64,000 bases of DNA. Source: a virus (Duplodnaviria > Caudoviricetes). Position numbers and translations under genes: made by a program. This document shows positions 28,165 through 51,358 of the stretch, piece after piece. The notes beneath the pieces are model-generated. The model ran no database searches. It saw nothing but the letters and a program-made list of their open reading frames with translations, and was not told where the DNA came from. The DNA lies in the IMG/VR virus record IMGVR_UViG_3300021399_003927, positions 32,001 through 96,000 of that record; one strand, 5' to 3'. Numbering within the stretch: the first letter of the stretch is position 1; each line of letters begins with the position of its first letter.

Positions 28165-28861
28165 TGGGCCTAGAGGGGCTTGAACCCACGACCTTCAGAT
28201 TCATGCTACACTATGTTACCATAGTCAAACAAAGCTTGTAAAACCATTACGACTGCTCTTGGGTCAGCACTTTACGCATCTTACGCTATTTCAGAAGCCT
28301 TCTGAGATTTTACAAATTGCTTTCTATACCCCTCTGTACCTTAGAGTCGTTGACCAGTATAGAAACTTTGTTTGTTGTAGTCTGGAATACATCTTTACCA
28401 TATTGAAATTCTTGCAAGATTATGTTAGGGCTGAAACCTTTTGAGGTAAGACGTATCTATCTCATATATAGCAGTTTCTACACTCTGCTTTAACATAAAT
28501 TTCAACTTAGGTATCTCCTATATACTCTCTACACATTTATGAATGTAGCATACTTAATCATTAACTTTTCTGAAGCGTATTTTCATTCTCATTAGAGATT
28601 TTTTCGCCTCTACATTCAATTTAGCACGGTATAATCCTTACACATTATTGGTTAGTGTTGTGTTAGTTCGCCTCAAGGTAGCACGGATAAATCCGTGTCG
28701 TTCTTCAGGCTACCACTCGTAGGTTTAATGACTAACTCCATTAAAAGGACTTCCACCGTTTTAGGGAGATTCTACATAGGGATTTCTCGCCTATGCACAC
28801 AATTGTGAAACGCTTTTCACATCTATGAGTCTGCTGCTCTAACCAACTGAGCTATAGGCCC
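28165..28861 (-). tRNA. tRNA(CAT), Ile2-like, split by a group I intron
   Basis: 5' exon 28825-28861 and 3' exon 28165-28201 join into a cloverleaf with loop CTCATAA. Confidence 0.88.
28202..28824 (-). mobile_element. group I intron (about 623 nt) after position 36
   Basis: 5' exon ends in U, intron ends in G; P/Q/R/S-like cores AAAACGGTGGAA, ATACCGTGCTAAA, GTAGAGAGTATA, AAGATGTATTCC. Confidence 0.88.
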
Positions 28862-29222
28862 AAATTGCCAAAGGAACTTTCAAGTTAATTCTATCATGTA
28901 TGCTGCGCCTTACGCCTAGACTCTGACGCATTAATTAAATAAGATAAGTACTCCTTCCGTAACAAATCACATACATGAATCCTATGTTAGACTCTCTTTG
29001 GCTATATGGTTTATTCAATAATAATAATAGTCTTCGTCATAAAACTCGTCTTCGTAGTCTTCATCACCATTTTCTATGATGTCCATTACGTCCTCTTCGG
29101 AGATTCCCAACTCATCGGCTATGTCTTCTACTGTATAGCCGTCTTCAATCATGTTGTAAATTTCTTCTTCCATAATAATTTTTTTGCAAATATATGATTT
29201 TTATTTTTAATAACCAAATATT

Positions 29223-29477
29223 TTAAGATTTTTTAATGTTATACAACCAATAATAAATTAAAACAATTATCCCACCAAACAAAAACACGATACCATAAGA
29301 CATAGCCATACAAGCATACACATAAGCAACATCAAGCAAATTCATAAGGCTTTTGGTGAACATTTCCTTAGTTGGCATGCCACTCACATTACTAGGCACT
29401 ATGTTATCTTTGAATATAAGAAAACTAGTTAAACAGAATAATGCGATGAACAATATGATTTTGAATTTATTTTTCAT
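29223..29477 (-). CDS. membrane protein
   Basis: Two hydrophobic segments. Confidence 0.55.
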   Translation of the reverse strand: MKNKFKIILFIALFCLTSFLIFKDNIVPSNVSGMPTKEMFTKSLMNLLDVAYVYACMAMSYGIVFLFGGIIVLIYYWLYNIKKS

Positions 29478-29479
29478 AT

Positions 29480-29854
29480 TTAATAATTTTGTTTACTAGG
29501 TATAACACCTCTGACTCCTCCCCTTGGGTTTTCAACATCACCCTCATATCTAGGAATTATATGTATATGGCAATGATGAATGGTTTGTCCAGCAACCTCT
29601 CCACAGTTAATACCGATATTATAACCTTGGGGATGGTATCTTTCGTCTAATATTTTTTTGACATTCTCTATTGCATAATGCAATGACTCCTTTTGAGAAT
29701 CTGATAAATCAAAATATGTTTCAACGTGTTCCTTTGGTATAATAAGTGTATGACCTTTAGATACTGGATATTCATCTAATACAGCTTTCCATACAGTTCT
29801 GTCGAACAACACATTCTCTTCCTTTTGATTTTCACAAAAAACACACTTATCCAT
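29480..29854 (-). CDS. HIT family hydrolase
   Basis: CVFC, GHTLIIPK, HCHIHIIPR. Confidence 0.92.
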   Translation of the reverse strand: MDKCVFCENQKEENVLFDRTVWKAVLDEYPVSKGHTLIIPKEHVETYFDLSDSQKESLHYAIENVKKILDERYHPQGYNIGINCGEVAGQTIHHCHIHIIPRYEGDVENPRGGVRGVIPSKQNY

Positions 29855-30329
29855 TGTCTCTGATATGTTCCACTGCGCTCGTAAGGGCTACAGCAATTGC
29901 CTTTTCAATATTATTGCTTCTAGAAGAATCAGCTTCAATCTTTACATACTTGAAAGTGACTCTTCCATTTATTTTCTTGCACACACAAATCCATATTGTA
30001 CTATTTTCACTGTCCTTATGGATAAATGCGTCACCAATAACACTAATACATACATCTACGTTAAACATGTAAGATGCATATAATGCAGTTTTCATGGCCA
30101 CTTGAGAACTGTATAAACCATTCGCCTCTATAACATCTTCACCTATTCTCATCAACGTTTTAAGGGCATCGTCATTGAAATAGTTAAGAGTACCCTTATA
30201 AATTGTTGGAACGGCACATACGCTTCCTATGGTTGCTCCAAGCAGTCCACAAGTACAATTCTCAACTGTTGCTATCGTTAGACCTCTGTTGAGGATTTCT
30301 AAGGCTAATTCTTTTAACTCTTTATTCAT
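29847..30329 (-). CDS. CinA-C/PncC-like protein
   Basis: ATVENCTCGL versus the consensus AESCTGG. Confidence 0.7.
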   Translation of the reverse strand: MNKELKELALEILNRGLTIATVENCTCGLLGATIGSVCAVPTIYKGTLNYFNDDALKTLMRIGEDVIEANGLYSSQVAMKTALYASYMFNVDVCISVIGDAFIHKDSENSTIWICVCKKINGRVTFKYVKIEADSSRSNNIEKAIAVALTSAVEHIRDNG

Positions 30330-30678
30330 TGAAATAAACGTTTTTGTCAATATTAAGTTCTCTAAACACGTCCATGATTTTTTTGTTGATGTCTTGTTTC
30401 TGCTTTTTCAGTTTGGTTATGATGTTCTTTAAAGCTTCTTCCTTGTTAAGGAAATATACATCATCTACAGATGATTTTTTCAAATCATAAATAATGAAAT
30501 GGCAACTATCACCCCACCAATCATGCGTTTGCCTACCTAGCTTATCCATGAAAAGGCAAAGTAATCGTCCTTGGCCTTCATCAATAGGCTTAATTCTTTT
30601 GGTTTCAACCTTATTTCCTTTTATCACGTATACTGGATAAATCTCTCCAATAGTTAAATCTTTAAATGTAAGTGTCAT
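30322..30678 (-). CDS. hypothetical protein
   Basis: ORF directly after a promoter. Confidence 0.55.
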   Translation of the reverse strand: MTLTFKDLTIGEIYPVYVIKGNKVETKRIKPIDEGQGRLLCLFMDKLGRQTHDWWGDSCHFIIYDLKKSSVDDVYFLNKEEALKNIITKLKKQKQDINKKIMDVFRELNIDKNVYFNE

Positions 30679-30895
30679 TTCATATACTTTTTATTAAATT
30701 TTTTGCAAATATATGAAAAAAAATTGAGAAAGACAACCATCTTCCTCAACTTTAACAATCTTTAATTTTACATTTGTTCTGTGCTCTGTTTATCTTGTTG
30801 TAAAAGTTAATCCTTTTCAACTTATCAGTAGACTTATTGGCTGTAGCCAAATAAGAATTCTTAGCTTTTTTCTTTTTATTTAAACTAGTCATATT

Positions 30896-31076
30896 GGGAG
30901 TCTGGAGGGAATCGAACCCACATTATGTTTAAACCGACACACTAAATGCGCTTCCCTACTTGTGTTTCACCACGTTTTCGGTGCATCCGCAAAAATACAA
31001 GACCTTAATTCAGATTCTCTATCGGTAATAGCCACTGCATTTGCTACCGCATTGTCCATTTTATGCTACAGACTCC
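30896..31076 (-). ncRNA. tRNA shell with an insert of about 115 nt replacing the anticodon arm
   Basis: GGAGTCTG/CAGACTCC acceptor, GCAT/ATGC D arm, GGG-TTCGATT-CCC T arm. Confidence 0.7.
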
Positions 31077-31085
31077 ATATATTAA

Positions 31086-31565
31086 TTACACATTGTAATC
31101 CGTGAATCTTACTTCTGATTTGTTATATATTTTTGAACTTGATTTATTATATTCATCCTCGTTAACAATTCTACCAAGTAAAGCAAAATATAAAGGATGG
31201 CAAGTAAATTCAGAACCATTGTCATCGAATTTTATTGTAACTTCTTCTGACCACATCTGGTTTCTGTTAATCTCCACTAAATGTTTCTCGTTTGAACATA
31301 CAAGACTGAAACGGCCTCTAGATACTATCTCCCCTAATCTATAGTGTTTGTTGACAAAACACTCTCGATATATCATTGGATTTGTCATATTACTGTTGTA
31401 ATACTTGGTGTCCATTACAAACACTCTGTCTCCAATATTGAAGAAACATTTATATGGAGTTCCATATTTTTCATACGAATTGTGGGAAGGCCATAATACC
31501 ACCATTCCGTCAACTCTTCCTACTTCACAAGTTTCAACCCTTATGAATTTTTTTTGTTTGTTCAT
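31086..31565 (-). CDS. hypothetical protein
   Basis: 159-aa ORF. Confidence 0.55.
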   Translation of the reverse strand: MNKQKKFIRVETCEVGRVDGMVVLWPSHNSYEKYGTPYKCFFNIGDRVFVMDTKYYNSNMTNPMIYRECFVNKHYRLGEIVSRGRFSLVCSNEKHLVEINRNQMWSEEVTIKFDDNGSEFTCHPLYFALLGRIVNEDEYNKSSSKIYNKSEVRFTDYNV

Positions 31566-31756
31566 TTTGTTTGTTTCTTTTTTTTAGTATTAAAAATAGG
31601 TTTGCTTGTACCAACCTTAAAGGTATCCTCTTATCCATCAAGGAACTAGGGCAAGGGGTCAATCCTCGCACAGCATTACTGCTTGCCTACCATTTCTTAC
31701 GTGGTTTGCGCTTGTCTAACTATTTCAGCACCCAATATGGGTGCGCCAAGCCGTAG

Positions 31757-31832
31757 TTGGGAATTCTGGGCTCGAACCAAAACATCCTAGTGAATCAGAC
31801 TAGGCGCATTAACCATTTTTTGCTAATCCCCA
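31757..31832 (-). tRNA. atypical tRNA, anticodon GAT
   Basis: CCTAGT-CTGATTC-ACTAGG, U37, Gln-like acceptor. Confidence 0.6.
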
Positions 31833-31924
31833 ATGGGGCAGACAACCTTATTACTACCATCCTCACATTTAGTCACCCCCCAAACATGAGTTTTATGTCA
31901 ATCTGACAAAGGAAAATGGATGCG

Positions 31925-32009
31925 TGAGCGTAGTGGGATTCGAACCCACGTAGCTTATTGCCATAATAGTTTTAGAGACTATCCTAATAGACCACTCTAG
32001 CATACGCCC
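31925..32009 (-). tRNA. amber suppressor tRNA(CTA), class II body
   Basis: ATAGT-CTCTAAA-ACTAT, long variable arm, A73. Confidence 0.88.
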
Positions 32010-32031
32010 ATATTCTATTTAATCAATTTTT

Positions 32032-32346
32032 TCATTTTTCTAAATTCATTAGTTTTCTGTTCAAAACAAGTAGCATACCCTCGGCTATAAGCTTTTCATC
32101 TGTATGATGCTTTATTACCTCTTTAAGCTTTTTAATAGCTTCTGCCTTGGCCTCTTCCTCACTATCATATACAGTCGCTACATTGACGATATACTCACCA
32201 TTAGCCAAGTTTTTTCCACCAATCTTAAACTTTGGCCTAGTTCTTCTATCATCGATAGGCTTGTCCACTACTGTGCTAGTTTTGACATCGTAGACATCAA
32301 TGTATATGGCAGTATCGCCAACTTTTAAACTAGATGCTTTTTTCAT
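32032..32346 (-). CDS. hypothetical protein
   Basis: ORF directly after a promoter. Confidence 0.55.
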   Translation of the reverse strand: MKKASSLKVGDTAIYIDVYDVKTSTVVDKPIDDRRTRPKFKIGGKNLANGEYIVNVATVYDSEEEAKAEAIKKLKEVIKHHTDEKLIAEGMLLVLNRKLMNLEK

Positions 32347-32446
32347 ATTGCAAATATATGAAAAATAATTTGAATAGCAAAATAATTTAAAAATTTTTAA
32401 TAAAAAAGCACCATAAGCAAGAGCCTACAGTGCTTTTTATATTGTA

Positions 32447-32746
32447 TTAGTCTTTGGTAACAATATCTAAATTTTTAAATAGCTCTTCATGGCCGTGTAC
32501 CGCGATTGCAGTAATTCTACTGTCTAAGTCAGGTTCTCTGAACTCAGAATATTCAACACCTAGAAGGTCTAACTTCCTTCTCCACTTTATTATGTCAGCT
32601 CTTAAGTAAATCAGATATTCGTTATCCCATAGGTGGGTATTTTTATGCTCTAGCATCCATTGCGCTACGGCATGACCCCCTTGTACACAACCATATACTG
32701 GTTTCAACGTCTTATCAATCAAGATATAAAGTTTATTCTTCTCCAT
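32447..32746 (-). CDS. Pth2-like peptidyl-tRNA hydrolase domain protein
   Basis: KLYILI, QGGHAV, FREPDL, TAIA. Confidence 0.65.
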   Translation of the reverse strand: MEKNKLYILIDKTLKPVYGCVQGGHAVAQWMLEHKNTHLWDNEYLIYLRADIIKWRRKLDLLGVEYSEFREPDLDSRITAIAVHGHEELFKNLDIVTKD

Positions 32747-33047
32747 CGGTTGATGCATATTTGTTGTAAGTTGTAATAACACGGTTTTTAAATGCTGGAA
32801 CCACATAGCTTTCGGTCATTTCACCTCCGCTTACTCCCCAACGGCCACTGTATAACATCTTCCAACAACGATGTCTTATTTCATCCTCAAGATACTTGTC
32901 ACGCTCTTCACCTTCGATACGATGCTTAAAAATGTAATAAGCAACATAATCAGAATGGTCTTTATATGCGTCTGACTTAATAAACTCTTTAAACTTAAGA
33001 TACTGTTCCTTAGTGGTGGCTTCGTTTGTAAAATTTTTCTTTTCCAT
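32733..33047 (-). CDS. hypothetical protein
   Basis: Overlaps the Pth2-like gene. Confidence 0.65.
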   Translation of the reverse strand: MEKKNFTNEATTKEQYLKFKEFIKSDAYKDHSDYVAYYIFKHRIEGEERDKYLEDEIRHRCWKMLYSGRWGVSGGEMTESYVVPAFKNRVITTYNKYASTDGEE

Positions 33048-33048
33048 A

Positions 33049-33195
33049 TGATATATTTTTAATTAGTTTGTTATTATTAATGAATTTAAATTACTTCACT
33101 TATATTTCCCATTCAAACTAAAATATATCAGGACCACGAATCTTTTTCAGCTACCAGAATTCGTCAGAAATCTACCAAAAACTGTTCTTTTTCAT
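33049..33195 (-). promoter_or_regulatory. putative leader peptide and translational attenuator
   Basis: MKKNSFW*ISDEFW*LKKIRGPDIF* (all TAG); its 3' end pairs with the start region of the next gene. Confidence 0.6.
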
Positions 33196-33228
33196 AATGT
33201 TAATTAATTTAATTAGTTATTAAAAATC

Positions 33229-33284
33229 GGAAGCTGTTTTCTTCTGCTAAGACGCGCAAAATATTAAGATTGCTGCAAGCTTCC
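33229..33284 (-). ncRNA. CAGCA-scaffold RNA with a small hairpin cargo
   Basis: GGAAGCTTGCAGCAA...GCTTCC. Confidence 0.75.
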
Positions 33285-33290
33285 TAATAG

Positions 33291-33372
33291 TAGCGGAGGA
33301 TGGATTTGCACCAACGAACCGTAAAGGACTAGGTTATGAGCCTAGCGAGTTTGACTACTTCTCTACTCCACT
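33291..33372 (-). tRNA. tRNA-Met(CAT) with extended variable arm
   Basis: CTAGG-CTCATAA-CCTAG. Confidence 0.75.
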
Positions 33373-33676
33373 AGAGTTAAACTTACGGAGGTACTTTCAT
33401 CTGGAATCTCGTTATTCTCAACCGCCAAGATTTCTTTTATCCCATAAGGACTTGACATTGAGCACTTCGGCACACCAATAAGGCTATTACTAAGTGTCCA
33501 CCATTGCGCCTAGATGTAATTACTCACACCCTCAGTAGCTGTTAATTCAGTTAACGTTAGCCCACGCTTGTACCCCTACGCCTCTATCGTAAGTTTATTG
33601 ATTAAGGAATTGGAAACGCTAAAGTCACACTATGAAACTCTCTACCTACTCATCGTAGCATTATCCAAAACCTTAG

Positions 33677-33750
33677 TGGAGCCAGTGGGAGTCGAACCCA
33701 CGACCCCTTGCTTGCAAAGCAAGTGCTCTAGCCAACTGAGCTATGACCCC
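33677..33750 (-). tRNA. tRNA-Ala(TGC)
   Basis: Cloverleaf with G3:U70. Confidence 0.95.
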
Positions 33751-33992
33751 AAAACTTGTGGATTTGAAACAAACTCTCCAACTATTTTAGGCTACCCTTC
33801 CGTATAATGTCCATTCGTCTGTTATAATAGATTGATGAACGAACTCAAGTAGTCAAGGAATCGTTATCTTTGAGAAGAACGGCATAAGAGTCATCACTTT
33901 CTTTCCGAAGTCCGAAAGATATATTCTCTAATGAGAGCAGACCACAAAAACTACTCTGTTCCTTTAAAAACCTAGAATTAGTTAATATCTTG

Positions 33993-34033
33993 TCACCCAT
34001 TATGGAGTCGAACCATAAAATACCACTTGGGCA
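33993..34033 (-). ncRNA. tRNA minihelix-like element
   Basis: Acceptor-like stem plus TATGG-TTCGACT-CCATA only. Confidence 0.5.
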
Positions 34034-34042
34034 TTGGAGAAT

Positions 34043-34369
34043 TTAAAGTATCTCCACAACTTTACCATAGATTTGATTTCTACCTACCCATCCATTCATA
34101 TGACCATGATTGTTACCAATTAGGTACTCACTATCATTCTTAATGGCATGGATTAGATGCAAATAATGATGACCTCTAACCTTACATAATACAATGTCCT
34201 TTTTGTTAAGTTTAGTGTCATCTTTCACAGGTTCGCATATAACTGCTTGCCTTGATTTCAAAATAGGTGTCATAGAATTACCAATTCCAGTCACCTTACA
34301 TGTTTCACCTGCTCTCAGATGGTTGCATGTCTCTTGGTTTTCAAAACCACTATAAGTAAAATCTCTCAT
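34043..34369 (-). CDS. S24/S26 peptidase-like protein
   Basis: GNSMTP and LHLI. Confidence 0.65.
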   Translation of the reverse strand: MRDFTYSGFENQETCNHLRAGETCKVTGIGNSMTPILKSRQAVICEPVKDDTKLNKKDIVLCKVRGHHYLHLIHAIKNDSEYLIGNNHGHMNGWVGRNQIYGKVVEIL

Positions 34370-34388
34370 AATAAAAAAAGTTTACTTG

Positions 34389-34512
34389 CAGGGACTGATG
34401 GACTCGAACCACCATTGTTCATTAACAGTTAAAGGCGTAATCTGTTCCGCAGTCGAGACTACGTTAATTCCTTAAGACGTAACAAACCACTTTACCATTA
34501 AGCTAAATCCCT
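34389..34512 (-). ncRNA. tRNA with an insert of about 50 nt in the anticodon arm
   Basis: Normal acceptor, D and T arms; residual CTGTTAA loop. Confidence 0.65.
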
Positions 34513-34524
34513 ATATAAATATAC

Positions 34525-35315
34525 AAAAGACTGAGAATGTTGTCTTATTGTTGATGCCATCACACAACGGTTGGACGTTGCTCTTCACACGCTGCCTTAC
34601 AGCAGACGTAGACACCATGCACGATGATTTTGCGAAAACCACCCAAAAAACTTACTAGTTTAAACCTCTCGGTGCAGCATCATAGCTTTCAGTTCTTCGC
34701 CAAGCTCTTGCGGATTCATAGGATGCCTCCTATTAACTCAGACGAGTACTTTTACACGCTCATTGAATTCCTTGCGAGTCCTCAATGTCTTCATATTGCA
34801 GAAGAATAAGTGCATTTTAGCTGCCTAGTGTCGCACACTTTTGCTACTCTAAAAACTGTTTGAACCTTATTTCAAATTTTTTAAATTCCGCTGACCTTGG
34901 AAGACGAGGTGCGACCCATCGCATTCGTACCTTTTGAGTACGACCCACGAAATCGCCTTCCTACAAAGACTCACCACAAGTCCAATTGTTGTTATCTGCT
35001 ATCAGCCTTACGGTTCTCACGCCTTTCAGCGCAAGACTAGCGAATAACTAAACCCAACACGCCAACTGGTGATTATTGCATCGAGTTCAGCACAGTAATC
35101 TATTGTGTCACCACTCATCCAAAGACTCCTCACCCTTGGAAGCCTACACCTATGGTGTTACCCACGATGTAGACAGTACCATGCTCTTTTCAGTGAAATG
35201 CCTCAGTCACCCAAGACATCTGCAACGCTACTTGGTCAATTTCACGCCACATTTATCCTATTACTAGATTATCCTTAATGGCTACGAAAGCTAGCAAAAC
35301 CCCTTGCGAGATTCG
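34525..35315 (-). ncRNA. GOLLD-like giant structured RNA (about 790 nt)
   Basis: No credible ORF, GC-enriched, many GNRA hairpins (CTCGCAAGG, GTACTCAAAAGGTAC), located in a phage tRNA cluster; family assignment from recall. Confidence 0.55.
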
Positions 35316-35427
35316 TTGGTAAGAAGAGATTTGCACTCTTGAAGCCTCCGAAGAGGCACATCAAGCACGAACTTGATGCCCATTTGTCTACATCAGTCTC
35401 TCGACTGTTCTCCTCTGGTACTTACCA
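35316..35427 (-). ncRNA. tRNA-shaped RNA with expanded D-loop (copy 1)
   Basis: Acceptor, variable and T arms; D-loop GAGGAGAA-hairpin-ATGTAGACAAAT. Confidence 0.75.
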
Positions 35428-35462
35428 AAAGGTGGTTTTTCAATTTGTCCACCACAAAATAG

Positions 35463-35571
35463 TTGGTAGAGCTAGATTTGCACTAGCGAAGCTACCTAAG
35501 TAGCACAATACTTACCGTATTGCCGATTTGTCTACATCAGCCTTGCGACTGTTCTCCTCTCGTATCTACCA
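35463..35571 (-). ncRNA. tRNA-shaped RNA with expanded D-loop (copy 2)
   Basis: Same D-loop sequence; all stems show compensatory changes. Confidence 0.75.
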
Positions 35572-35577
35572 AATGAG

Positions 35578-35650: not shown

Positions 35651-35664
35651 ATGTTAAAAAATAA

Positions 35665-36387: not shown

Positions 36388-36407
36388 TTGTCCATCAATT
36401 TGTTAAG

Positions 36408-36765
36408 TGGAGCTAGAGTGAATCGAACACTCGTCCATACTACCATCCCATAAGAGATTACACAAGCTTTAAAATTGGAAAGTTGACATTGCTGTCCTCA
36501 CCGCCACCTCATTTTGCGAAAACGAGGAAAACTAGGGGGATGACTAGAGTCATCAGTCCACCATTCGGTTTCAAAAAACCGACAAAAAGTTGCATGGATG
36601 TTCTGTTCCTAAGAGCCATGCCTCTCGGCTCACATTACGCTGCTACAGCGTACTCGTAAGCAGGAGAATCAACATTCTCGCCGTTTATATTTTTTTGCTA
36701 TTTCTAGTGTATGCCCACTGCTTGTCTCTTACCAAATGTATAGCTGTCTATACCATTGTAGCCCC
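36408..36765 (-). ncRNA. ssrA: tmRNA
   Basis: GGGGCTA...TAGCTCCA acceptor with G3:U, T arm, tag frame GENVDSPAYEYAVAA*. Confidence 0.93.
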
Positions 36766-43030: not shown

Positions 43031-43831
43031 TTAAATATTTTGCAAATTGTTTAATATATGTTCTTTCCAATAATTTCTTCTAGTGCTGTTTTTATTTTTT
43101 GACTTAAATGTGTCTAACTGACTATCACAATTAGGACATATCATCCGCAAATTTTCTCTTTTGTTGTTAGAAGCATCACCATCAATATGGTCTAGTACAA
43201 ATACTAACGGTTTACCATTATGTTCTGGTTTACCTCCACATATTGGGCATATACCACCTTGTTCCTTTAAGAATTCTTTTTTAAAAGCTTTTGGTGTATA
43301 ATTTCCTCTACAGTATTTATTGTTATTTTCTAGAAAATCTTTATAAGATTCTCTATGCCTATGTTCTGCAACACATTTTTCAGAACAATATTTAGCATCT
43401 TTTACTGTAGTTTCAAAATATTTTCCACAAACAACACATTTTTTTGTATATTTAATTAATTTCTTTTCTTTTTTAATGTGTTCTTTTTTCGTTTTCTTTA
43501 ACTTACTAGCAATACCATCATAAACAGATTTATCCCTATGTTCATTGTTATACTTCGCAGCACAAGAACGGCAACAAAATTCCTTACCCCATTTATTAGT
43601 AATTTCTTTTCCGCATTGCTTACAATATTTAATTATTTTTTTCTTTTTATAAGTATCTAAATCAAATCCAACTGACGTTGCAATTTCTTTCAAATATTCA
43701 GAACCTTGTTTATTATCGCTTATTCCGAAATATTCATGTGCTTGATTTTTGCTAGTAAAACTATCAAATTTATCAAAGACCTCTTTCTTTTTTTCTTCTG
43801 TACTAATGTCAATAATCTTTCTTTTCCTCAT
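43031..43831 (-). CDS. HNH endonuclease with Zn-finger repeats
   Basis: CKQCG, CPICG, DHIDGD, NLRMICPNC. Confidence 0.88.
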   Translation of the reverse strand: MRKRKIIDISTEEKKKEVFDKFDSFTSKNQAHEYFGISDNKQGSEYLKEIATSVGFDLDTYKKKKIIKYCKQCGKEITNKWGKEFCCRSCAAKYNNEHRDKSVYDGIASKLKKTKKEHIKKEKKLIKYTKKCVVCGKYFETTVKDAKYCSEKCVAEHRHRESYKDFLENNNKYCRGNYTPKAFKKEFLKEQGGICPICGGKPEHNGKPLVFVLDHIDGDASNNKRENLRMICPNCDSQLDTFKSKNKNSTRRNYWKEHILNNLQNI

Positions 43832-43920: not shown

Positions 43921-44015
43921 CGGTGGGAGTAGGATTCGAACCCACGCTCCGATATATCTCAACCGAACTAAGAGATTTCAAGTCTCCCCCCTTATAACCA
44001 CTTGGGTATCCCACC
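43921..44015 (-). tRNA. tRNA-Ser(TGA)
   Basis: Class II cloverleaf. Confidence 0.9.
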
Positions 44016-44262
44016 AAAATAAAGGAATATACTAGCGAATCGTGTGTTGTATTTCACTCCACGTCTTTGACCACTACCATTTCGTCTACCATACTTTCAC
44101 ATGTTTGGAATAATTAGATAATCAGTAATAACGACTATAGTCTCCTGAAGTTTGTCCATCTAATCCATGTTATTCATACAGCCTACTCTTTCATTTGTAA
44201 TTTAATACAGATGATACTCTATGCATCACGAACTTACTGTTCTTCCGACCTTTATTCCTTTG

Positions 44263-44335
44263 TGGAGCTGAAGAGAATCGAACTCTCCCACGAACCTTGC
44301 AAAAGTCCATCGCCAGCCTTGGAACATGCAACCCC
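44263..44335 (-). tRNA. tRNA-Ala(TGC), atypical D arm
   Basis: G3:U70; loop TTTGCAA. Confidence 0.75.
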
Positions 44336-44474
44336 AAGCAATGCACAGCAGCAGTATCGTTGGCTTAGTGCGTCCTTACGGCTAGGTAAAAACCAATCCA
44401 TCATGGGGGGAACAACCCTAGCCACTCATATGTACATCTTTGAGTGTTGTTTTAGACCCACGTCTGGGTGCGTT

Positions 44475-45545
44475 CTATTTCTTGTCAAATATCACCCCAT
44501 CTGGTAAATCATTGTCTACCACTTTCTTCTCCTTGTAGTAGTCCAAATAGGCATTTCCATCGTCATTGATGATGTATTCGATGCCTCTTGAATATTCATA
44601 GGTAGATGCAACACCTTGCAGCATAAAGAAGAAAAATCCATCCTTATCTACTAGTCGCAACCAATGGGAATCATTTGTATTTTCCTCTTGTATGATTTTG
44701 TACTTGTCCGTTGCCTTTACCTTTTCTATGTATTTGTTGAAAGTTGGGGCAAACTTACCAGTTGCACAATCACCTCTGAAACGAACAGATTCAAACCCTA
44801 TTTTCTTAGCCCATTCGACAAAATTCTCAACGAATGTAGGAAAGTTCTCAATTTCCTTATACACAACACTCACTGCTGATGTTGTTATGTTTCTGTCAAG
44901 AAGCTGTACTATCAAGCTAGTAAGCTCTTCGTCTGTCGGAATTCTCCAAGTGTTAAATATCTCTCTTCGTGCATCTAAATTATAATGATGAATTGAAATA
45001 TTTACATAGTTAACCACGCCAATTAATGAATCTAAAACTTCATTCAGCTTATATCCATTTGTGGTAAGGGTCACTCTGTTAATTTTATCCAACCATTTAG
45101 AGTTTTTTAGCCTCCTTAACACTTTCCTTAACAAGTCTGGATTGAACGTTGGTTCATTTCCAGTTATGTCAAGACTAATTGGCTGTTTGCCGTATACTCT
45201 ATCAACCACATCGCCAAGAGAATCAATAAATCTGCTCAAGAATAAGTCATAGTCATGCTCCATGTTCTTATATCCGTTCATAAAACAAAACTCACACTTT
45301 GCTTGGCAGAAAGATGGGATTATCAACTTAATTGAAACCACATTCTCATAGTCAACTCTTACGTTGTAATTGTCAAGTACCCATAAATGCCATTTTGCAG
45401 CATTCACAACATTTTCATTCTCATGCTTTAGAAGAGATTCAACATAACCTCTGTCCAAGGTAAAATCCTTTTTCAGCTTATGGTATATGTCTGTCCATTT
45501 CTCCCTTTTGTGTTCTAAAATTGTCTTTTTGACATCTTTCCACAT
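44475..45545 (-). CDS. radical SAM protein
   Basis: CQAKCEFC, TGNEPT, TTNG. Confidence 0.88.
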   Translation of the reverse strand: MWKDVKKTILEHKREKWTDIYHKLKKDFTLDRGYVESLLKHENENVVNAAKWHLWVLDNYNVRVDYENVVSIKLIIPSFCQAKCEFCFMNGYKNMEHDYDLFLSRFIDSLGDVVDRVYGKQPISLDITGNEPTFNPDLLRKVLRRLKNSKWLDKINRVTLTTNGYKLNEVLDSLIGVVNYVNISIHHYNLDARREIFNTWRIPTDEELTSLIVQLLDRNITTSAVSVVYKEIENFPTFVENFVEWAKKIGFESVRFRGDCATGKFAPTFNKYIEKVKATDKYKIIQEENTNDSHWLRLVDKDGFFFFMLQGVASTYEYSRGIEYIINDDGNAYLDYYKEKKVVDNDLPDGVIFDKK

Positions 45546-45575
45546 ACTACTGAGTTATTAATTGATGAAACATTG

Positions 45576-45646
45576 CGGAGGTAGAGGGAATCGAACCCAC
45601 ACCTAATGGTTAACAGCCACTTGCTCGACCTTCGAGCTACACCTCC
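45576..45646 (-). tRNA. tRNA-Asn(GTT)
   Basis: Cloverleaf. Confidence 0.85.
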
Positions 45647-45653
45647 AATTTTG

Positions 45654-45731
45654 TGGATGCAATAGGATTCGAACCTATGTTTTTTTACCATTGTATATGG
45701 TCACTCCCCAGAGGAGTCCTTACACGCATCC
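45654..45731 (-). ncRNA. atypical tRNA-like RNA (TAC)
   Basis: Acceptor and T arm intact; non-canonical D arm; ACCA-TATACAA-TGGT. Confidence 0.55.
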
Positions 45732-45949
45732 ATATTTAGTCATTACAAAAATGTACCCAATAGGTATCATCTTTAATATCCTTTAAAACTTTTTTCCTAT
45801 CCCAATTATGTAGTATACATAATTTCCATAACATTTTTTTAGATAAAGGATTTATACACCCAAAAGGTGTAGTTCCAATAAGAGAATTTAACACCTCAAT
45901 ATGCTTTGTGTTACGTATTTTATGCATAGTTATTATAATTTCAATTTTG

Positions 45950-46021
45950 CAGTGACGATGGGATTCGAACCCACGACTTTTGGTTAGACAGACCAACGCT
46001 CTACCACTGAACTACGCCACT
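45950..46021 (-). tRNA. tRNA-Asp(GTC)
   Basis: Loop CTGTCTA (U37). Confidence 0.85.
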
Positions 46022-46039
46022 ATTTGAACTAATTTTTTG

Positions 46040-46112
46040 AGCCGTGTGAGGGATTCGAACCCACGACATTCACATTACAAGGGTGACGCTCTACCAACTG
46101 AGCTAACACGGC
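46040..46112 (-). tRNA. tRNA-Thr(TGT)
   Basis: Cloverleaf. Confidence 0.9.
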
Positions 46113-46194
46113 ATTGTTAAACTAGGTCTGCACTCCCCTCGCATGCTACGTGTCGGAGTTACTTGCATTGCTGCATTTGTTGTTACCTAGTTTG

Positions 46195-46267
46195 TGGGGC
46201 TGGGTGGAGTTGAACCACCGACACGAGGATTTTCAGTCCTCTGCTCTACCACCTGAGCTACAGCCCC
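46195..46267 (-). tRNA. tRNA-Phe(GAA)
   Basis: Cloverleaf. Confidence 0.95.
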
Positions 46268-46414
46268 AATATTCATTTGTCAATTTTATCAAGAATCTCT
46301 TGAGCCAAATTTATCATCTTGCCTAATTTTCCCATTTTTTTTTGCAAATATATGATTTTTTTTTCAAATAGCCAAATTTTTTCTCCACTTTAACATACCT
46401 TAACTATAGGCACA

Positions 46415-46623
46415 TAAAAAAGCTGCTGAATACTTTTTTGAGAGTTCTTCAACAGCTTGGGAAATATATAGTGAAGTAAGTGCCTACATTAAACCTTTCA
46501 TACCTCTATATCACCGTCTAGCTGTTCTAGAACTGCGTCTGAATTAAACACAACTGTATCATTCCATTTACTATTCGCAAATGAATCAGATGTCTTAACG
46601 ATATTTTTAATAGTTGTGTTCAT
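46415..46623 (-). promoter_or_regulatory. 41-aa leader-like ORF followed by an intrinsic terminator
   Basis: ORF 46498-46623; hairpin AAGCTGTTGAA...TTCAGCAGCTT followed by a U-tract. Confidence 0.45.
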
Positions 46624-46707
46624 GATATAAAAGTTTAATTGATTTTTCTATAATTATATATTAACTCTCAAAAAGTTCTATTTTTTTGTAATTTTTTTTG
46701 TATTTTT

Positions 46708-47139
46708 TTAATTTAAGTAGTTTTCATACTTTTTGCACTTTTCTTTCACCTCATTAAAATACTGCATGGCAGCTTCATTTGAAGTAAATCTTTTATGTAC
46801 ATTGTTGTTATAATCAGAACAATACACATCGACCTCTGCTTTAAAATATACGGTGTCATTCTTTAGGAAATAATGATGCCATCCATACTTACTTTCAGCA
46901 GCATCTTTCAATTTTGCAAAACGGCACATACGGCCACTTGCTTTGTATAAGTTATGTTTCGCATGAAGTGGAATAAGAGGTATTATCCCCCAAAGTTTCC
47001 AAAAATAAATTTTTCCCTTCGGTACTGCTACCTCCATTTTTTCACCTTCTTGTACTGGAGTAAACTCTATGCTTTTAATACTTCTGTAAAAAGCTCCACC
47101 TTCTAATCTAATAGGTGCGTATGTTTCATTATTGTCCAT
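46708..47139 (-). CDS. hypothetical protein
   Basis: ORF directly after a promoter. Confidence 0.6.
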   Translation of the reverse strand: MDNNETYAPIRLEGGAFYRSIKSIEFTPVQEGEKMEVAVPKGKIYFWKLWGIIPLIPLHAKHNLYKASGRMCRFAKLKDAAESKYGWHHYFLKNDTVYFKAEVDVYCSDYNNNVHKRFTSNEAAMQYFNEVKEKCKKYENYLN

Positions 47140-47262
47140 TGTTAATATGGTTATTTAAAAATTTCACAATGCAAAGATATAAAAAATATCTTTAATTCCC
47201 AAATTTTTTCAGAAGTTTTTAAAAAAAAATTCAAAAAATTCAAGTATTTGAACTATTTTTTG

Positions 47263-47350
47263 TATAGGGGGTGGGAGTCGAACCCACAACTATCTTTCGA
47301 TAGACTGGTTTCGTAGACCAGGACGGTCATCCATTACGTTTTACCCCTAC
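47263..47350 (-). tRNA. tRNA-Arg(ACG) with long variable arm
   Basis: CTGGT-CTACGAA-ACCAG; CTATC-GAAA-GATAG arm. Confidence 0.75.
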
Positions 47351-47356
47351 ATAAAA

Positions 47357-47515
47357 AGGAACGACCAATTTTATGTCTTGGCTCGACATTCGCTCTTACT
47401 TAAGGAGCATAGGTAAGTGCCTCGCAATGATGATTTAACGCTTCTCTTACCCTTGTCTAGTCTGAATTAAAAAATGTTGTTCGTGTAAATTTTAATCAAA
47501 CTGCTGTACGTTCCT
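47357..47515 (-). ncRNA. CAGCA-scaffold RNA with multi-hairpin cargo
   Basis: GGAACGTACAGCAG...CGTTCC. Confidence 0.7.
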
Positions 47516-47558
47516 ACTGACACGCAGCTAGGCGCAACTGGGCTTCCTAGATACGATG

Positions 47559-48093
47559 TACATCCGCTGGGACTCGAACCCAGAACCTACGGCTTCGTAC
47601 TACTCTATGTTACCATAGCCAAACTTAACAATAACGTATATACGAGGCACATGTCCCCATGCATCCAACCGATGATGCGTTAAATTTGTTGTAGTCTGGA
47701 ATACATCTTTACCATATTGAAATTCTTGCGCAAGTTGAGCGTGCTTTATACGTTTACACTACTATACACGGTTGAGTATCTTATTGCCTCTCAATTTCAA
47801 CTTAGGTATCTCCTATATACTCTCTACACATTTATGAGAATCTTTCACTATCCATCTTCTTCCATTTTATTGATGGCTCTTCTCAATTTAGCACGGTATA
47901 ATCCTTACACATTATTGGTTAGTGTGTTTTTCATAAGCGATTGGGCATCTTTGTGTTCCAATGTAACTTCAACTTATTACTCTAACTTAAAAGAACTTCC
48001 ACCGTTTTAGGGAGATTCTACTATGGGATTTCTCGCCATAGCATCCAATTTTACATAGAAGGCCGTTGCTCTAATCCATTGAGCTACGGATGC
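47559..48093 (-). tRNA. tRNA-Arg(TCT) split by a group I intron
   Basis: Exons 48057-48093 and 47559-47595. Confidence 0.9.
47596..48056 (-). mobile_element. group I intron (about 461 nt) after position 36
   Basis: Core shared with the 28202 intron; IGS ATTGGA. Confidence 0.9.
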
Positions 48094-48460
48094 ATTTACA
48101 TTAACTCAATGTTGGGTCATTTTTGGGGTCGTAGTCATCGTGCAAAAAAGGCTCTGTTGGTGGAACTTCTACTGCATTGCGAAATTCATACACCATTATG
48201 CCTATAAATGCTACTAAAAACGCCAATACGATTATTCCAATTATTCTCATTTTTATTTATTTCTTTTTTTAGAATATTCTTCCAACTCTTCTTTAAAGGA
48301 TTTCATTTTTTCCTTTTTACTTGGACGTTTCTTAGGGGAAAAACAAACTAGCATAATAAGCATGTATCCCCATATAAACAAAAATAAAATAAATAGTAAC
48401 CTTCCCATAACATTTTCTATTTACGTTGCAAATATATGAAAAAAAATTGAAATAGCCAAA

Positions 48461-49483
48461 TTATTTTGACCTTTTTAACTTATTTCTATACCAATTTTTC
48501 AAAATATCATAAATTCCTTTATTTCTTTTAACAAATATATCACCTTGTGGAATCTCCTTTGATGAATATTTTTTGAAACTACCTCTAGCAGTACCATTTT
48601 CCTCATTCCATCTTCCAATGACCCTTCTCATTTTCTTAATCAAATAAGAAATGTTGGCATCGCATAATTTAAAATAGTTTTTTGGTTCATCTATTCTCCT
48701 AATAGATGCATCAATATATTCTTTTGTGTTATCTTTTGTGTAATAATCATCTTTTGAAACATACACTCGTTTCAACAATTTGTAGTCTTTAATTGTACCA
48801 GATAGCATTTTATAGGTCTTAGTGTCTCTGATGTCATTTTCATATTGTGACTCCATATACATTTCTTGAACCCACGCATCTATTTCGTCTCTATCTAATC
48901 TATAATATATCCAAGGTATCGTATAATCTACAATTTGTTTAATAGGGGTATTTGCGGCTGAATTAAAACCAAATTTGTTTTCTATTTCTCTTTGCGCCTT
49001 TGAATACTGGGGTGTGATATTAGTACCACCTCTTCTATATGACTGATAAGCATGTTTTATTTCGTGATTAATTGTAGATACAATATAGTTTTTTTCCCTA
49101 TGAGGTATAGCATCTGTCATTGCCCACACAAACGAAAATGTTATCACTCTATTACTAGGAGAAAAGTTATTTTTCAAATAGCCATTACTAGAAATAAAAT
49201 CCATAACGTCATCAAACGTTTCATTCTGTGGGTTATAATAATACAAATTGACAGTAATTCCATTTAAAAAAGACAATGTTTGAATATTATCAATATCTAA
49301 ATTAAATGTTTTACCATATATTTTTTTATCACCAATCTGGAACGTTTGGCTTCTATATTCTCTATGATGTTCATATATCAAATTAAAAATGGCTATAGAT
49401 ATTTGCATAATATCATTTGACACGCCACCATATTCTAATATTACTTCTTTTACTATGGATTCTATGAGATTATTTTTAATCAT
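48461..49483 (-). CDS. hypothetical HExxH protein
   Basis: HEIKH followed by a downstream E. Confidence 0.6.
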   Translation of the reverse strand: MIKNNLIESIVKEVILEYGGVSNDIMQISIAIFNLIYEHHREYRSQTFQIGDKKIYGKTFNLDIDNIQTLSFLNGITVNLYYYNPQNETFDDVMDFISSNGYLKNNFSPSNRVITFSFVWAMTDAIPHREKNYIVSTINHEIKHAYQSYRRGGTNITPQYSKAQREIENKFGFNSAANTPIKQIVDYTIPWIYYRLDRDEIDAWVQEMYMESQYENDIRDTKTYKMLSGTIKDYKLLKRVYVSKDDYYTKDNTKEYIDASIRRIDEPKNYFKLCDANISYLIKKMRRVIGRWNEENGTARGSFKKYSSKEIPQGDIFVKRNKGIYDILKNWYRNKLKRSK

Positions 49484-49865
49484 AACAAAAATGACATCTA
49501 TTATTTTAATTTATAATAAATATCATTTTAAACTAAAAATAACTGAATGTGTTGTTACACCAAAGACAACGTATATACTTTACGCCTCACGATTCACGTT
49601 TACAATTCGACCAAGAATCCAGCAGCGGCTTTAAAGGTTCTCCAACTTGACTTCACGAGCCTCATTCGGTCTTATATTTCAGATTCTCAGACTTCGACCT
49701 CTCGTCTCTCGCCTATTAGGGATTTGCAACTCCCAAGTTATTTGGATGCACCTAGGGTTTTTATACGAGGTGTAAACCCATAAAACATACTACCTCACCA
49801 CTTACTGAGTACTGTCACTCCTTAGAAGATGGACACTACCAATCCTACTTTTTCAGTTATCTATG

Positions 49866-49953
49866 TAGGGTAGAAGGGATTCGAACCCCCACAAACCTCT
49901 CGGTTTCCACATCCTAAGTGTGGTGCGTCTCAACCTAATTGCGCCACTACCCC
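49866..49953 (-). tRNA. tRNA-Leu(TAG)
   Basis: Class II cloverleaf. Confidence 0.9.
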
Positions 49954-49966
49954 ATAATAAAAACTC

Positions 49967-50093
49967 GGAAACAATTGTTTTTAGACTGCCGTGTTTAGCC
50001 ACTCCACCAACTTTCATCTAAGAAAGTGTGGGATTCGAACCCACGAAATCAATTACGATTAGCTGTTTTGAACAAATATTGCTGTTTGTTTCC
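49967..50093 (-). ncRNA. CAGCA-scaffold RNA with permuted class II (Ser/Leu-like) tRNA
   Basis: Variable arm, T arm and ACTTTC come before GAAAGT, D arm and GCAGTCT; opened in the anticodon loop. Confidence 0.8.
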
Positions 50094-50121
50094 TTTATAA
50101 AAAAAAGCGATTGAATAATTG

Positions 50122-50195
50122 TAGGGGCGATGGATAATGCTCCCACTATCTCATGCTTATAAGGCATGTGCTTTTACTGTCTAAGCTACACCCCA
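50122..50195 (-). tRNA. tRNA-Ile(TAT)
   Basis: CATGC-CTTATAA-GCATG; aberrant T-loop. Confidence 0.7.
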
Positions 50196-50389
50196 ATCTT
50201 CCAATATGGATAATTCCTCTTTTCAGATTCTGGCGTATCTGTTAATTCATACCTTGCGCCACAGTAAGGACAATGGGCATAAGTCACCATTGCATCGTCT
50301 TCTTCACTCAAATCTTCTCCGTTGATTTCACTGAGCATAAAGTTTCCCTCTAGAATTAGGTCATGCTCACAACGCATACATTTTTCCAT
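50186..50389 (-). CDS. small Zn-ribbon protein
   Basis: CMRC and CPYC. Confidence 0.6.
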   Translation of the reverse strand: MEKCMRCEHDLILEGNFMLSEINGEDLSEEDDAMVTYAHCPYCGARYELTDTPESEKRNYPYWKIGV

Positions 50390-50407
50390 ATTGAATTAGT
50401 TTTATTG

Positions 50408-50479
50408 AGCAGTGTAGGAGATTCGAACTCCCTCCTTGACCTTGGCAAGGTTATATGCTACCATTAACACCAACACTGC
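50408..50479 (-). tRNA. tRNA-Gly(GCC)
   Basis: Cloverleaf, U73. Confidence 0.9.
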
Positions 50480-50648
50480 AAAGTCAGTTTTTATAACCGT
50501 AAAACTGAAAAACTTCCTCCACCTACGATGAGGCAATAGTTTGAATTCCTTCAGGGACTACTGACGTTACGTTGAGCCTCAAATCTCTTTTGATGGTCTT
50601 TTTTAACGTGCAGATAATCTAGCAAGTAGTATGTACACGATATTTTAA

Positions 50649-50794
50649 GGAAACGTTTGTTGTTTATTTTAAGTGCTCTAGCCGACTGAGCTACCACGCT
50701 ATGTTATTATAATTTAGCAGCGTGGGCAGGACTCGAACCTGCGACCCCTAGCTTGTAATGCTTTTTTAAACGATATACATTGCTGTACGTTTCC
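50649..50794 (-). ncRNA. CAGCA-scaffold RNA with permuted tRNA (TAC)
   Basis: AGC-ATTACAA-GCT, T arm and CCACGCT come before AGCGTGG and the D arm. Confidence 0.85.
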
Positions 50795-50800
50795 ACGTTG

Positions 50801-51358
50801 AGCGAGTGAACGGAATCGAACCGTCATATTCAGCTTGCTTACCACACTATGTTACCATAGCCAAACAAATGCTTCCCTTTCAAGGCATATTTAACTCTTC
50901 TAAGCTCATTTGTCTGTTGTAGTCTGGAATACATCTTTACCATATTGAAATTCTTGCAAGATATATTTGAACATTCTTCCTCTTCTTTTTCCCAATAGGC
51001 TCTATATATTACGCAAAGAGTTGTACGCTATTATCCTCTTGGCAAGTTCAAATATAAATTTCAACTTAGGTATCTCCTATATACTCTCTACACATTTATG
51101 AGAATAAACTATTGGTTAAATAGACTTACTTACAAGGTTTTTCCTTTTCTTGTACCTATTATTCTCAATTTAGCACGGTATTATCCTTCCCCATTATTGT
51201 TTAGGAGGCACTGATAGTCTTATACAGTACGATTTATTATTATACTACTCGTAAGGACTTCCACCGTTTTAGGGAGATTCTACTATGGGATTTCTCGCCA
51301 TAGCACTTCATTTTCAGTCCTTTGGAGGGCTGACATTCTACCATTGAACTACACTCGC
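50801..51358 (-). tRNA. tRNA-Gly(TCC) split by a group I intron
   Basis: Exons 51325-51358 and 50801-50837; loop CCTC|CAA. Confidence 0.85.
50838..51324 (-). mobile_element. group I intron (about 487 nt) at position 35/36
   Basis: Shared core; IGS ATGAAG. Confidence 0.85.

Follow-up and report, generated by a model that had tools for sequence, protein, structure and literature searches.

Among the systems described so far, the introns treated here come closest to the group I introns of bacterial tRNA genes, which reside in the anticodon loop on bacterial chromosomes and have a very short P1 helix of 3 bp (Williams 2020). In phages, group I introns tend toward protein genes, according to Hausner et al. 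(PMC3984707), and for crAss-like phages and the Jug group the respective papers report introns in MCP, PolB, primase, terL and nrdD, which were recognised via endonuclease domains or subtype models (Yutin 2021, PMC7886860; PMC12880540). Introns in phage tRNA genes are reported for the Lak megaphages, where the paper terms them 'enigmatic', presents them, 'to our knowledge', as the first of their kind in tRNAs of phages and mentions that a classification with Rfam was tried (Devoto 2019, PMC6784885). In our literature search, this was the only report of unclassified phage tRNA introns, and no paper was found that classes phage tRNA introns as group I or that contains the J6/7-P7 sequence motif described below. 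Here we describe three introns in the tRNA genes of a virus (Duplodnaviria; Caudoviricetes) represented by the IMG/VR record IMGVR_UViG_3300021399_003927, of which positions 32,001 to 96,000 were analysed; this stretch of 64,000 nucleotides is called the window. The parent record comprises 129,491 bp with a CheckV completeness estimate of 44%, the GC content of the window is 36%, and default ARAGORN lists in it a dense tRNA array on the minus strand with 32 genes, including a tmRNA and a suppressor tRNA(CUA). Judged from their sequences, the three introns very probably belong to a single phage-borne family, that of self-splicing group I (IC3-like) introns without an open reading frame (ORF), each of them placed in a tRNA anticodon loop of a jumbo-phage array. 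Catalysis and splicing in vivo are what we infer from these features.

Like the introns of Williams (2020), those of the window use the anticodon loop, imply the same chemistry and have a 3-bp P1. In the nomenclature of that study, copy 1, in tRNA(CAU), corresponds to Ile2.5Ug, copy 2, in tRNA-Arg(UCU), to Arg.5Ug and relatives on other contigs to Leu.3Ug; copies 1 and 2 use two classical positions. In contrast to the bacterial introns, the present ones are found in phage tRNA arrays, at 461-623 nt they have about double the length and contain insertions in P5, P6, P8 and P9, and one near-identical core occurs in at least nine tRNA/site settings and in a protein gene. Moreover, the Rfam model Intron_gpI (RF00028) found all phase I introns of Williams at 18 bits or more, whereas the present family is invisible to it, and copy 3, in tRNA-Gly(UCC), has C-A at the splice site where the bacterial type Leu.3Cg has a Watson-Crick C-G pair. 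A degenerate core pattern, searched in one genome each of 185,579 prokaryote species, gave a single match, on a contig of a metagenome-assembled genome labelled Clostridium sp. (L053, 587-615), which may be a phage contig binned with a bacterium.

The crAss-like phages share the core block with the window. It splits the primase of IAS virus and cr116_1 under the same guide rule (GAG, CUU↓AAA, the arrow marking the splice site here and below), and crAss-like and Jug phages are likewise gut phages of Bacteroidota-type bacteria. The main text of the Jug paper (PMC12880540) mentions tRNA 0 times. The Lak megaphages, compared by description only, resemble our case in having highly conserved tRNA introns in huge gut phages, one of them in tRNA-Tyr(GTA), and differ in their GC content of about 26% versus 36% and in that the window shows no sign of stop-codon recoding (PMC6784885). 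Archaeal and eukaryotic tRNA introns of the bulge-helix-bulge type also lie in or beside the anticodon loop, but they are short, without ribozyme core and dependent on endonuclease and ligase, whereas the present introns possess a full core, a guide and a terminal G. The family is new as a family and in its host setting, while its kind is already known.

Repeat finding placed a long element three times in the window, at about 28.2-28.8, 47.6-48.1 and 50.8-51.3 kb (families D9 and D11-D14). In a BLAST search of copy 2 against the whole record, the only matches were the other two copies (E 2e-35 and 6e-30). ARAGORN with introns allowed reads copy 1 as tRNA(CAU) at c[28164,28861], in which 623 nt of intron separate positions 37 and 38 (junction ctcat↓aatct), and copy 2 as tRNA-Arg(UCU) at c[47558,48093], split at the same position by an intron of 461 nt (junction cttct↓aagcc). 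For copy 3, a junction test was used, in which the 3' end was fixed at the conserved terminal G and every 5' junction was tried; CCUC↓CAA alone yields a normal 72-nt tRNA, Gly(UCC), with G1-C72, C2-G71, G3-C70 and U73, which we take to be the bacterial Gly identity set. ARAGORN instead folds copy 3 as a 95-nt tRNA-Trp with a fake variable arm, which is implausible, so that tRNA-Gly was preferred. The resulting gene structures are as follows.

28825-28861, minus strand: 5' exon of tRNA(CAU), 37 nt, ending ...CUCAU (ARAGORN and junction test)
28202-28824, minus strand: intron of copy 1, 623 nt, ORF-less, terminal G at 28202
28164-28201, minus strand: 3' exon of copy 1, 38 nt, starting AAUCUGA (ARAGORN)
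48057-48093, minus strand: 5' exon of tRNA-Arg(UCU), 37 nt, ending ...CUUCU (ARAGORN and junction test)
47596-48056, minus strand: intron of copy 2, 461 nt, ORF-less, terminal G at 47596
47558-47595, minus strand: 3' exon of copy 2, 38 nt (ARAGORN)
51325-51358, minus strand: 5' exon of tRNA-Gly(UCC), 34 nt, ending ...CCUC, with C33 and C at -1 (junction test)
50838-51324, minus strand: intron of copy 3, 487 nt, ORF-less, terminal G at 50838
50800-50837, minus strand: 3' exon of copy 3, 38 nt, starting CAAGCUGA (junction test)

The exon pairs of all three tRNAs fold as cloverleaves, by ARAGORN or in the junction test. No ORF of at least 60 aa was found on the coding strand of any of the three introns; an endonuclease ORF is present in 0/3, and they do not class as homing-endonuclease-bearing. 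An earlier note, made from the letters of the window alone, had described three ORF-less introns with near-identical cores in tRNA(CAU), tRNA-Arg(UCU) and tRNA-Gly(UCC) within 28202-51324, an interval that opens exactly at the terminal G of copy 1 and closes at the first intron base of copy 3. ARAGORN, the junction test and the ORF scan bear out hosts and lack of ORFs, and the cores are indeed 89-94% identical over 213 columns. It had also predicted that tRNA finders will miss these genes, and neither default ARAGORN nor Rfam tRNA at gathering score lists any of the split genes (0/3) in the window, where tRNAs for Arg(UCU) and Gly(UCC) exist only in this split form. ARAGORN with introns allowed proposed four further split tRNAs in the window, none of which holds the intron core in BLAST: the calls starting at 24425 and 41237 overlap intact tRNAs by coordinates, one 'intron' (53079-53814) contains other tRNAs, and the fourth is 23313-23729.

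The introns share a fixed order of blocks. Two nucleotides ahead of P2 stands a 3-nt guide; P2 has a GAAA loop and is followed by P3 (ATCTCC), an A-rich J3/4, P4 (ACGGT/ACCGT), P5, a hairpin with a conserved 11-nt loop, and P6. Then come P7 (G[A]GAGTA, the bulged A in brackets), directly the 3' strand of P3 (GGAGAT), P8 and, as the returning strand of P7, TATTCC. The intron closes with P9, a three-way junction that includes a GUAA hairpin, and with 3 nt and the terminal G. This order and the crossing of P3 and P7 are those of a group I core, and the P7 variant GAGTA/TATTC had been read correctly in the earlier note. Large variable insertions are located in P5, P6, P8 and P9; the copies of crAss-like phages and of Lys(UUU) have an additional insertion between P3 and P4. 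The main elements lie at the following places.

48020-48042 (copy 2), 28774-28796 (copy 1) and 51282-51304 (copy 3), minus strand: P2 hairpin with GAAA tetraloop
48011-48016, minus strand: 5' strand of P3 in copy 2, one partner of the P3/P7 pseudoknot
47818-47824, minus strand: 5' strand of P7 in copy 2, G[A]GAGTA
47808-47813, minus strand: 3' strand of P3 in copy 2, GGAGAT
47712-47806, minus strand: P8 of copy 2, with a CCUAAG...UAUGG motif and a variable extension
47698-47703, minus strand: 3' strand of P7 in copy 2, TATTCC, pseudoknot partner
47599-47695, minus strand: P9 three-way junction of copy 2, with P9 (ACTAC/GTAGT), a variable P9a and the P9b GUAA hairpin, which ends 3 nt ahead of the terminal G

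The GAAA loop on P2, the CCUAAG...UAUGG motif in P8 and the GUAA loop in P9b are conserved. We take the P8 motif to be the sequence of the 11-nt GAAA-tetraloop receptor, and a GAAA L2, an 11-nt-receptor-like P8 motif and a GNRA L9 together presumably are hallmarks of subgroup IC3. Introns of this subgroup have a compact architecture of tRNA type, in which the GNRA loop of L2 docks in a receptor in P8 and that of L9 in P5. The present introns are far larger than known IC3 introns. That IC3 introns carry GNRA receptors is stated by Geary 2008 (PMC2275092).

The proposed pairing was examined in an alignment of 27 full-length members, comprising those of the window, 22 viral-contig loci and IAS virus, in which 66 pairs in 13 helices were counted with P7 entered as a pseudoknot. 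Standard pairs fill 95.3% of the cells, compared to 36.2-45.2% if the partners are slid by 1-3 columns, and both-sided changes occur in 30/66 pairs versus a shuffle mean of 13.3; 0/500 shuffles reached any of five measures. The structure was drawn by eye from these same, related sequences, hence the absolute pairing figures flatter it, and the slid controls and both-sided changes represent the stronger evidence. Compensatory changes are found in P2 (7/9 pairs), P6 (4/6) and P7 (3/6), and also in P4, P5, the P5 hairpin, P8, P9, P9a and P9b. The helices without compensatory change are P3 and two receptor pairs, and P3 is invariant and therefore uninformative on pairing. In P7, GAGUA/UAUUC varies to GACUA/UAGUC, GAACA/UGUUC and GACUG/CAGUC, while one G-C pair of G[A]GAGUA/UAUUCC (columns 665/925) is kept in 25/27 sequences and the outer G-C in 26/27. 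The G-C pair beside the bulged A presumably forms the guanosine-binding site, as in the Tetrahymena and Azoarcus introns.

The most direct prediction of a group I structure concerns the splice sites, and it was followed across the whole family. Searching with two conserved 20-23-mers and a third from another block collected 45 loci on viral contigs of 5 to 401 kb. The 5' block has 50 instances, and in 30 of these the 3' block is also present, which defines the complete copies. The junction test assigned 25/30 complete copies to a tRNA; L015, L018 (second copy), L028, L035 and L049 (second copy) stayed unassigned. The hosts and insertion points, the last two lines added by hand, are listed below and amount to at least nine tRNA/site combinations, besides one protein gene.

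Arg(UCU), after position 36: 8 copies
Arg(UCU), after U34: 3 copies
Leu(UAA), after U34: 8 copies
Leu(UAA), after U33: 2 copies
CAU, after position 36: 2 copies
Tyr(GUA), after U35: 1 copy
Gly(UCC), after C35: 1 copy
Ser(UGA), after U34: L014
Lys(UUU), after U34: L016 and L032

A terminal G ends 30/30 complete copies, its column being invariant in 27/27 aligned sequences, and U stands at -1 in 24/25 tRNA-hosted copies. In 23/25, pairing between the guide triplet and the final three bases of the 5' exon is complete (3/3), copy 3 and L048 being the exceptions. Furthermore, in 24/25 the 3' exon begins with a base that pairs with the nucleotide directly 5' of the guide triplet, and with L014, L016 and L032 included this P10 guide base follows all four possibilities (U for A, A for U, G for C, C for G). 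Six guides and their exon triplets were found.

GGA with UCU
GAG with CUU
GGU with ACU
GUG with CAU
GCA with UGU
AAG with CUC

In the window, the earlier note had given the guides as ATT-GTG, ATT-GGA and ATG-AAG, and all three are present as written, 2 nt ahead of P2.

28798-28803, minus strand: guide of copy 1, ATT for P10 (28801-28803) and GTG for P1 (28798-28800), pairing 3/3 with CAU↓ and 3/3 with ↓AAU
48044-48049, minus strand: guide of copy 2, ATT for P10 and GGA for P1, pairing 3/3 with UCU↓ and 2/3 with ↓AAG
51306-51311, minus strand: guide of copy 3, ATG for P10 and AAG for P1, with P10 pairing 2/3 with ↓CAA

In copies 1 and 2, U(-1) stands opposite G and P1 is paired 3/3. The guide/exon pattern is the behaviour expected of P1 and P10. 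In the proposed mechanism, the transcribed intron would fold into P1-P10, and the 3-nt guide would pair with the last three exon bases. An exogenous guanosine bound in P7 would then attack after position -1, the start of the 3' exon would pair with the neighbouring guide bases (P10), and the terminal G would take the same pocket, upon which ligation of the exons would leave an anticodon loop of the usual 7 nt. Only by such splicing would the Arg(UCU) and Gly(UCC) tRNAs of the window be producible.

The same rule applies to a gene for a protein. A BLAST search of GenBank phages found the J6/7-P7-P3' block with 91-94% identity over about 50 nt in the crAss-like IAS virus and in cr116_1. In cr116_1, it sits in the gap between two annotated primase fragments; the guide rule (GAG, exon end CUU, terminal G, P10 UUU versus AAA) predicts the removal of 569 nt, after which the fragments join on a codon boundary into a 340-aa frame with no internal stop. 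The primase frame of IAS virus is likewise open across the predicted junction.

Besides the regular copies, the collection includes altered relatives. L028, L035 and the second copy of L049 have the guide GGA and a 3' exon identical to that of copy 2 over the bases shown, and in all three contigs the 5' half of the tRNA is cut to about 7 nt of the acceptor stem. In L024 (about 1180-1770) the guide is changed to AAA and the terminal G to A, L021 (about 9025-9400) keeps the 5' two thirds of an intron beside an intact tRNA-Ser(UGA), and L025 (about 4074-4440) is a decayed copy. Four other loci (L019, L020, L029, L030) contain the same core from P2 to the P7 3' strand (TACTC, a perfect complement) without P9, followed 3-6 nt further on by a tRNA-like element with acceptor and T arms and an odd anticodon region, which ARAGORN does not call, and preceded by a conserved element upstream. 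This architecture may be a derived ribozyme or a remnant.

Several results weigh against the assignment to self-splicing group I introns. First, the covariance-model check proposed in the earlier note failed: with E up to 10, RF00028 gave no match in the window or in copy 2 alone, none in the whole record, where 7 candidates were scored, and none in eight related loci including the crAss ones. The lack of a match anywhere searched speaks for the alternative that these elements are look-alikes of group I ribozymes, or a new class, which are removed by proteins or other chemistry. Yet, the RF00028 seed contains no bacterial intron (Williams 2020), and four large peripheral insertions, as present here, can defeat such a covariance model. 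Moreover, the P1-P10 order and topology, the P3/P7 pseudoknot, the P7 G-C pair beside the bulged A and the A-rich J3/4 are all in place, as are the terminal G, the U-G wobble and P10, and these features covary. The introns thus belong to group I by predicted anatomy, covariation and splice-site rules and not by the RF00028 model, and a wholly different kind of element appears very improbable to us.

Second, the evidence from RNA libraries points both ways. Parts of the window were found in 17 RNA runs, from ruminant or other animal gut samples, and contigs of four runs were placed on 47500-51400 at 90% likeness. No spliced-exon joint for the split genes, and no joint across the copy 2 or copy 3 intron, is among the joints listed for these four runs. 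A joint from 49890 to 48056 with 11 letters between resembles a relative's Arg(UCU) tRNA after ligation; an intron-less gene would be an equally good source, and the joint was therefore not counted. On the supporting side, X1 and X3 contigs, which stem from two studies, agree with parts of copies 2 and 3 at every base. One X1 contig, placed on the P9b region of copy 3 (50844), has the bases of copy 1 and extends 66 letters; read in RNA sense, 30 of these letters consist of the final 6 bases of the copy 1 intron joined directly to its first 24. Such a head-to-tail junction would be expected from a circle of the complete intron, and both ends predicted for copy 1 coincide exactly with it. The junction comes from one contig, at 90% likeness and from a library in which DNA may be present, and is counted only as a hint. 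Several 'goes back' joints of X4 resemble circle junctions of relatives; they have short sides at 90% likeness and are weaker.

Third, copy 3 has an odd splice site, and several relatives are decayed. The P1 of copy 3 consists of G-C, A-U and then A opposite C(-1), i.e. 2/3 paired, a mismatch to which the earlier note did not point, and its mature loop would be CCUCCAA with C33. U33 is near-universal in tRNAs. A second Gly-type copy was not found in the viral collection, where an exact 21-mer gave 0 matches and a 15-mer gave 26 matches with 0 family members among them. Together with L021, L024 and L025, in which exons are lost or terminal G and guide mutated, and with L028, L035 and L049, which are without the 5' half, the unpaired splice site and the singleton status of copy 3 point to the alternative that splicing has been lost in some copies or in all of them, most of all in copy 3, and that their host tRNA genes are pseudogenes kept only by recent insertion. 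However, the cores of the three copies are as similar as given above, they reach up to 98.6% identity to relatives, every core helix is intact and the exons still form canonical cloverleaves. The P10 guide base G of copy 3 fits the unusual C at the start of its 3' exon, which argues for adaptation to the site. L048, a Leu(UAA) copy, likewise has C33. According to work on the Tetrahymena intron, a C-A pair can take the shape of a U-G wobble, and such a pair may act in copy 3. For the bacterial type Leu.3Cg, in which C(-1) is part of a Watson-Crick C-G pair, testing has been called for (Williams 2020). Generally, we regard decay across the copies as unlikely, and death of copy 3 itself also as the less probable outcome, though a chance to be reckoned with; the decayed relatives mean that not every copy need be active.

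We keep the reading of the three copies as self-splicing introns of one family, which leads to the question of how they reached different tRNAs. The earlier note assumed spread within the genome, and this is not what the comparison of the copies suggests. Their peripheral extensions show 0.30-0.62 identity, the level between arbitrary members. Copy 1 instead shares its P6 extension with an Arg(UCU) site-3 intron on another contig (L027; 100% identity), copy 2 its P6 and P9 extensions with a Tyr(GUA) intron (L049; 95% and 100%), and copy 3 its P6 extension with a Leu(UAA) site-2 intron (L008; 100%). The copies thus share the core only, whereas their modules match those of introns at other sites in other phages, which argues for a recombining pool across phages and not for recent duplication within this genome. 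When the viral contigs were searched by the 5' exon of the Arg and Gly tRNAs, 0 intron-less or other alleles were found for each.

Reverse splicing, the route named in the earlier note, is plausible. One guide, GAG, serves CUU↓ in four different tRNAs and in the primase gene; these hosts (Leu, Arg, Lys and Ser tRNAs, primase) share only CUU↓, the insertion being followed by AAAA, CUAA, UUAA, GAAA and AAAA, so that a 3-nt RNA guide fits better than a long DNA site. A reverse transcriptase (PF00078) was not found in the 129-kb record, itself 44% complete, which weighs against reverse splicing. Alternatively, the family may reach new tRNA sites via DNA, by homing with intron-encoded or free-standing HNH endonucleases combined with recombination between introns. 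In favour of this route, besides the missing reverse transcriptase, peripheral modules are shuffled between introns of different sites, and a 1109-nt member in tRNA-Leu(UAA) (L031) contains, after the P7 3' strand, a 171-aa I-HmuI-like HNH ORF (4275-4790, plus strand) with NUMOD4, HNH_3 and NUMOD1, all above the Pfam cut-offs. Furthermore, two HNH-like ORFs lie in the array of the window.

43031-43831, minus strand: free-standing ORF of 266 aa, which matches HNH_3 weakly at 22.5 bits (cut-off 24.8), the nearer of the two HNH-like ORFs
about 54124-54171: second HNH motif of the array

The DNA route is opposed by the common CUU↓ ahead of the insertion in the five site-3 hosts, which differ behind it and thus point to recognition by a 3-nt guide, and by the absence of an ORF in 3/3 window introns and nearly all other copies. 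It falls a little short of an even chance in our judgement, and the two routes are comparably likely and may act together. Taking reverse splicing further, we tentatively propose a scenario, possible though rather doubtful, of active RNA-guided intron transposition, in which the ORF-less ribozyme reverse-splices into new hosts by its 3-nt guide. With GAG it would enter C32-U33-U34 loops (Leu UAA, Arg UCU, Lys UUU, Ser UGA) and the CUU of a primase mRNA, and single guide changes would open UCU↓, CAU↓, ACU↓, UGU↓ and CUC↓ (by C-A wobble); circles would persist, and the process may explain the tRNA introns of megaphages. The further ideas of the earlier note, that the introns shield the genes from neighbouring HNH nucleases or gate tRNA maturation, draw no computed support, and there is no evidence either way; the array has only the two HNH-like ORFs, 2.8-3.7 kb away, one of them below the Pfam cut-off.

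The array around the three split genes contains other features, of which some are RNAs. The CUA suppressor tRNA is found by ARAGORN and Rfam, and the tmRNA is phage-borne. A full-length match to the GOLLD RNA model, below threshold, is probably a divergent GOLLD-like RNA; adjoining it, a stretched tRNA match looks like a tRNA whose anticodon region is enlarged by an insertion of about 50 nt, which is not related to the group I family. A region just downstream of tRNA-Leu(UAG), without any Rfam match, is covered by RNA-library contigs of each of the four runs and is possibly an unannotated small RNA. A motif of about 59 nt, promoter-like, stands ahead of gene groups of the minus-strand array, and its reverse complement resembles what we take to be the Bacteroidota-type -7 promoter element. 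The number of minus-strand ORFs of at least 150 aa is nearly equal under code 11 (33) and with TAG as sense (35).

27926-48477: ten copies of the motif of about 59 nt around TTGCAAATATATGA (plus strand), repeat family D1
29847-30350, minus strand: CinA-like protein gene
31924-32009, minus strand: suppressor tRNA(CUA)
34389-34512, minus strand: Rfam tRNA match of 38.8 bits stretched over 124 nt
34528-34961, minus strand: GOLLD match within the tRNA array, 73.7 bits versus a gathering score of 150, E 1.3e-17
36405-36765, minus strand: tmRNA with the tag GENVDSPAYEYAVAA
44475-45545, minus strand: radical SAM enzyme
49577-49849, minus strand: region with RNA-library contigs, downstream of tRNA-Leu(UAG)
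50642-50770, minus strand: Y RNA-like (YrlA) match below threshold, 41 bits versus 69, E 4.9e-6, immediately downstream of the split tRNA-Gly
51598-52620, minus strand: OmpA-family protein with a hint of a beta-barrel

The existence of this family has consequences for the analysis of phage genomes. Phage tRNA counts, codon-usage arguments and analyses of stop-codon recoding that are built on default tRNA finders overlook such genes, and Rfam-based surveys of group I introns overlook the whole family. Copy 3 represents a natural test of a C-A pair at a 5' splice site. Moreover, a nearly fixed core that is combined with six 3-nt guides at at least nine tRNA sites and in one protein gene provides a natural series on target change, which could test reverse splicing in nature, long argued mostly from rDNA phylogenies. 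Finally, the family is a testable candidate for the 'enigmatic' tRNA introns of huge gut phages.

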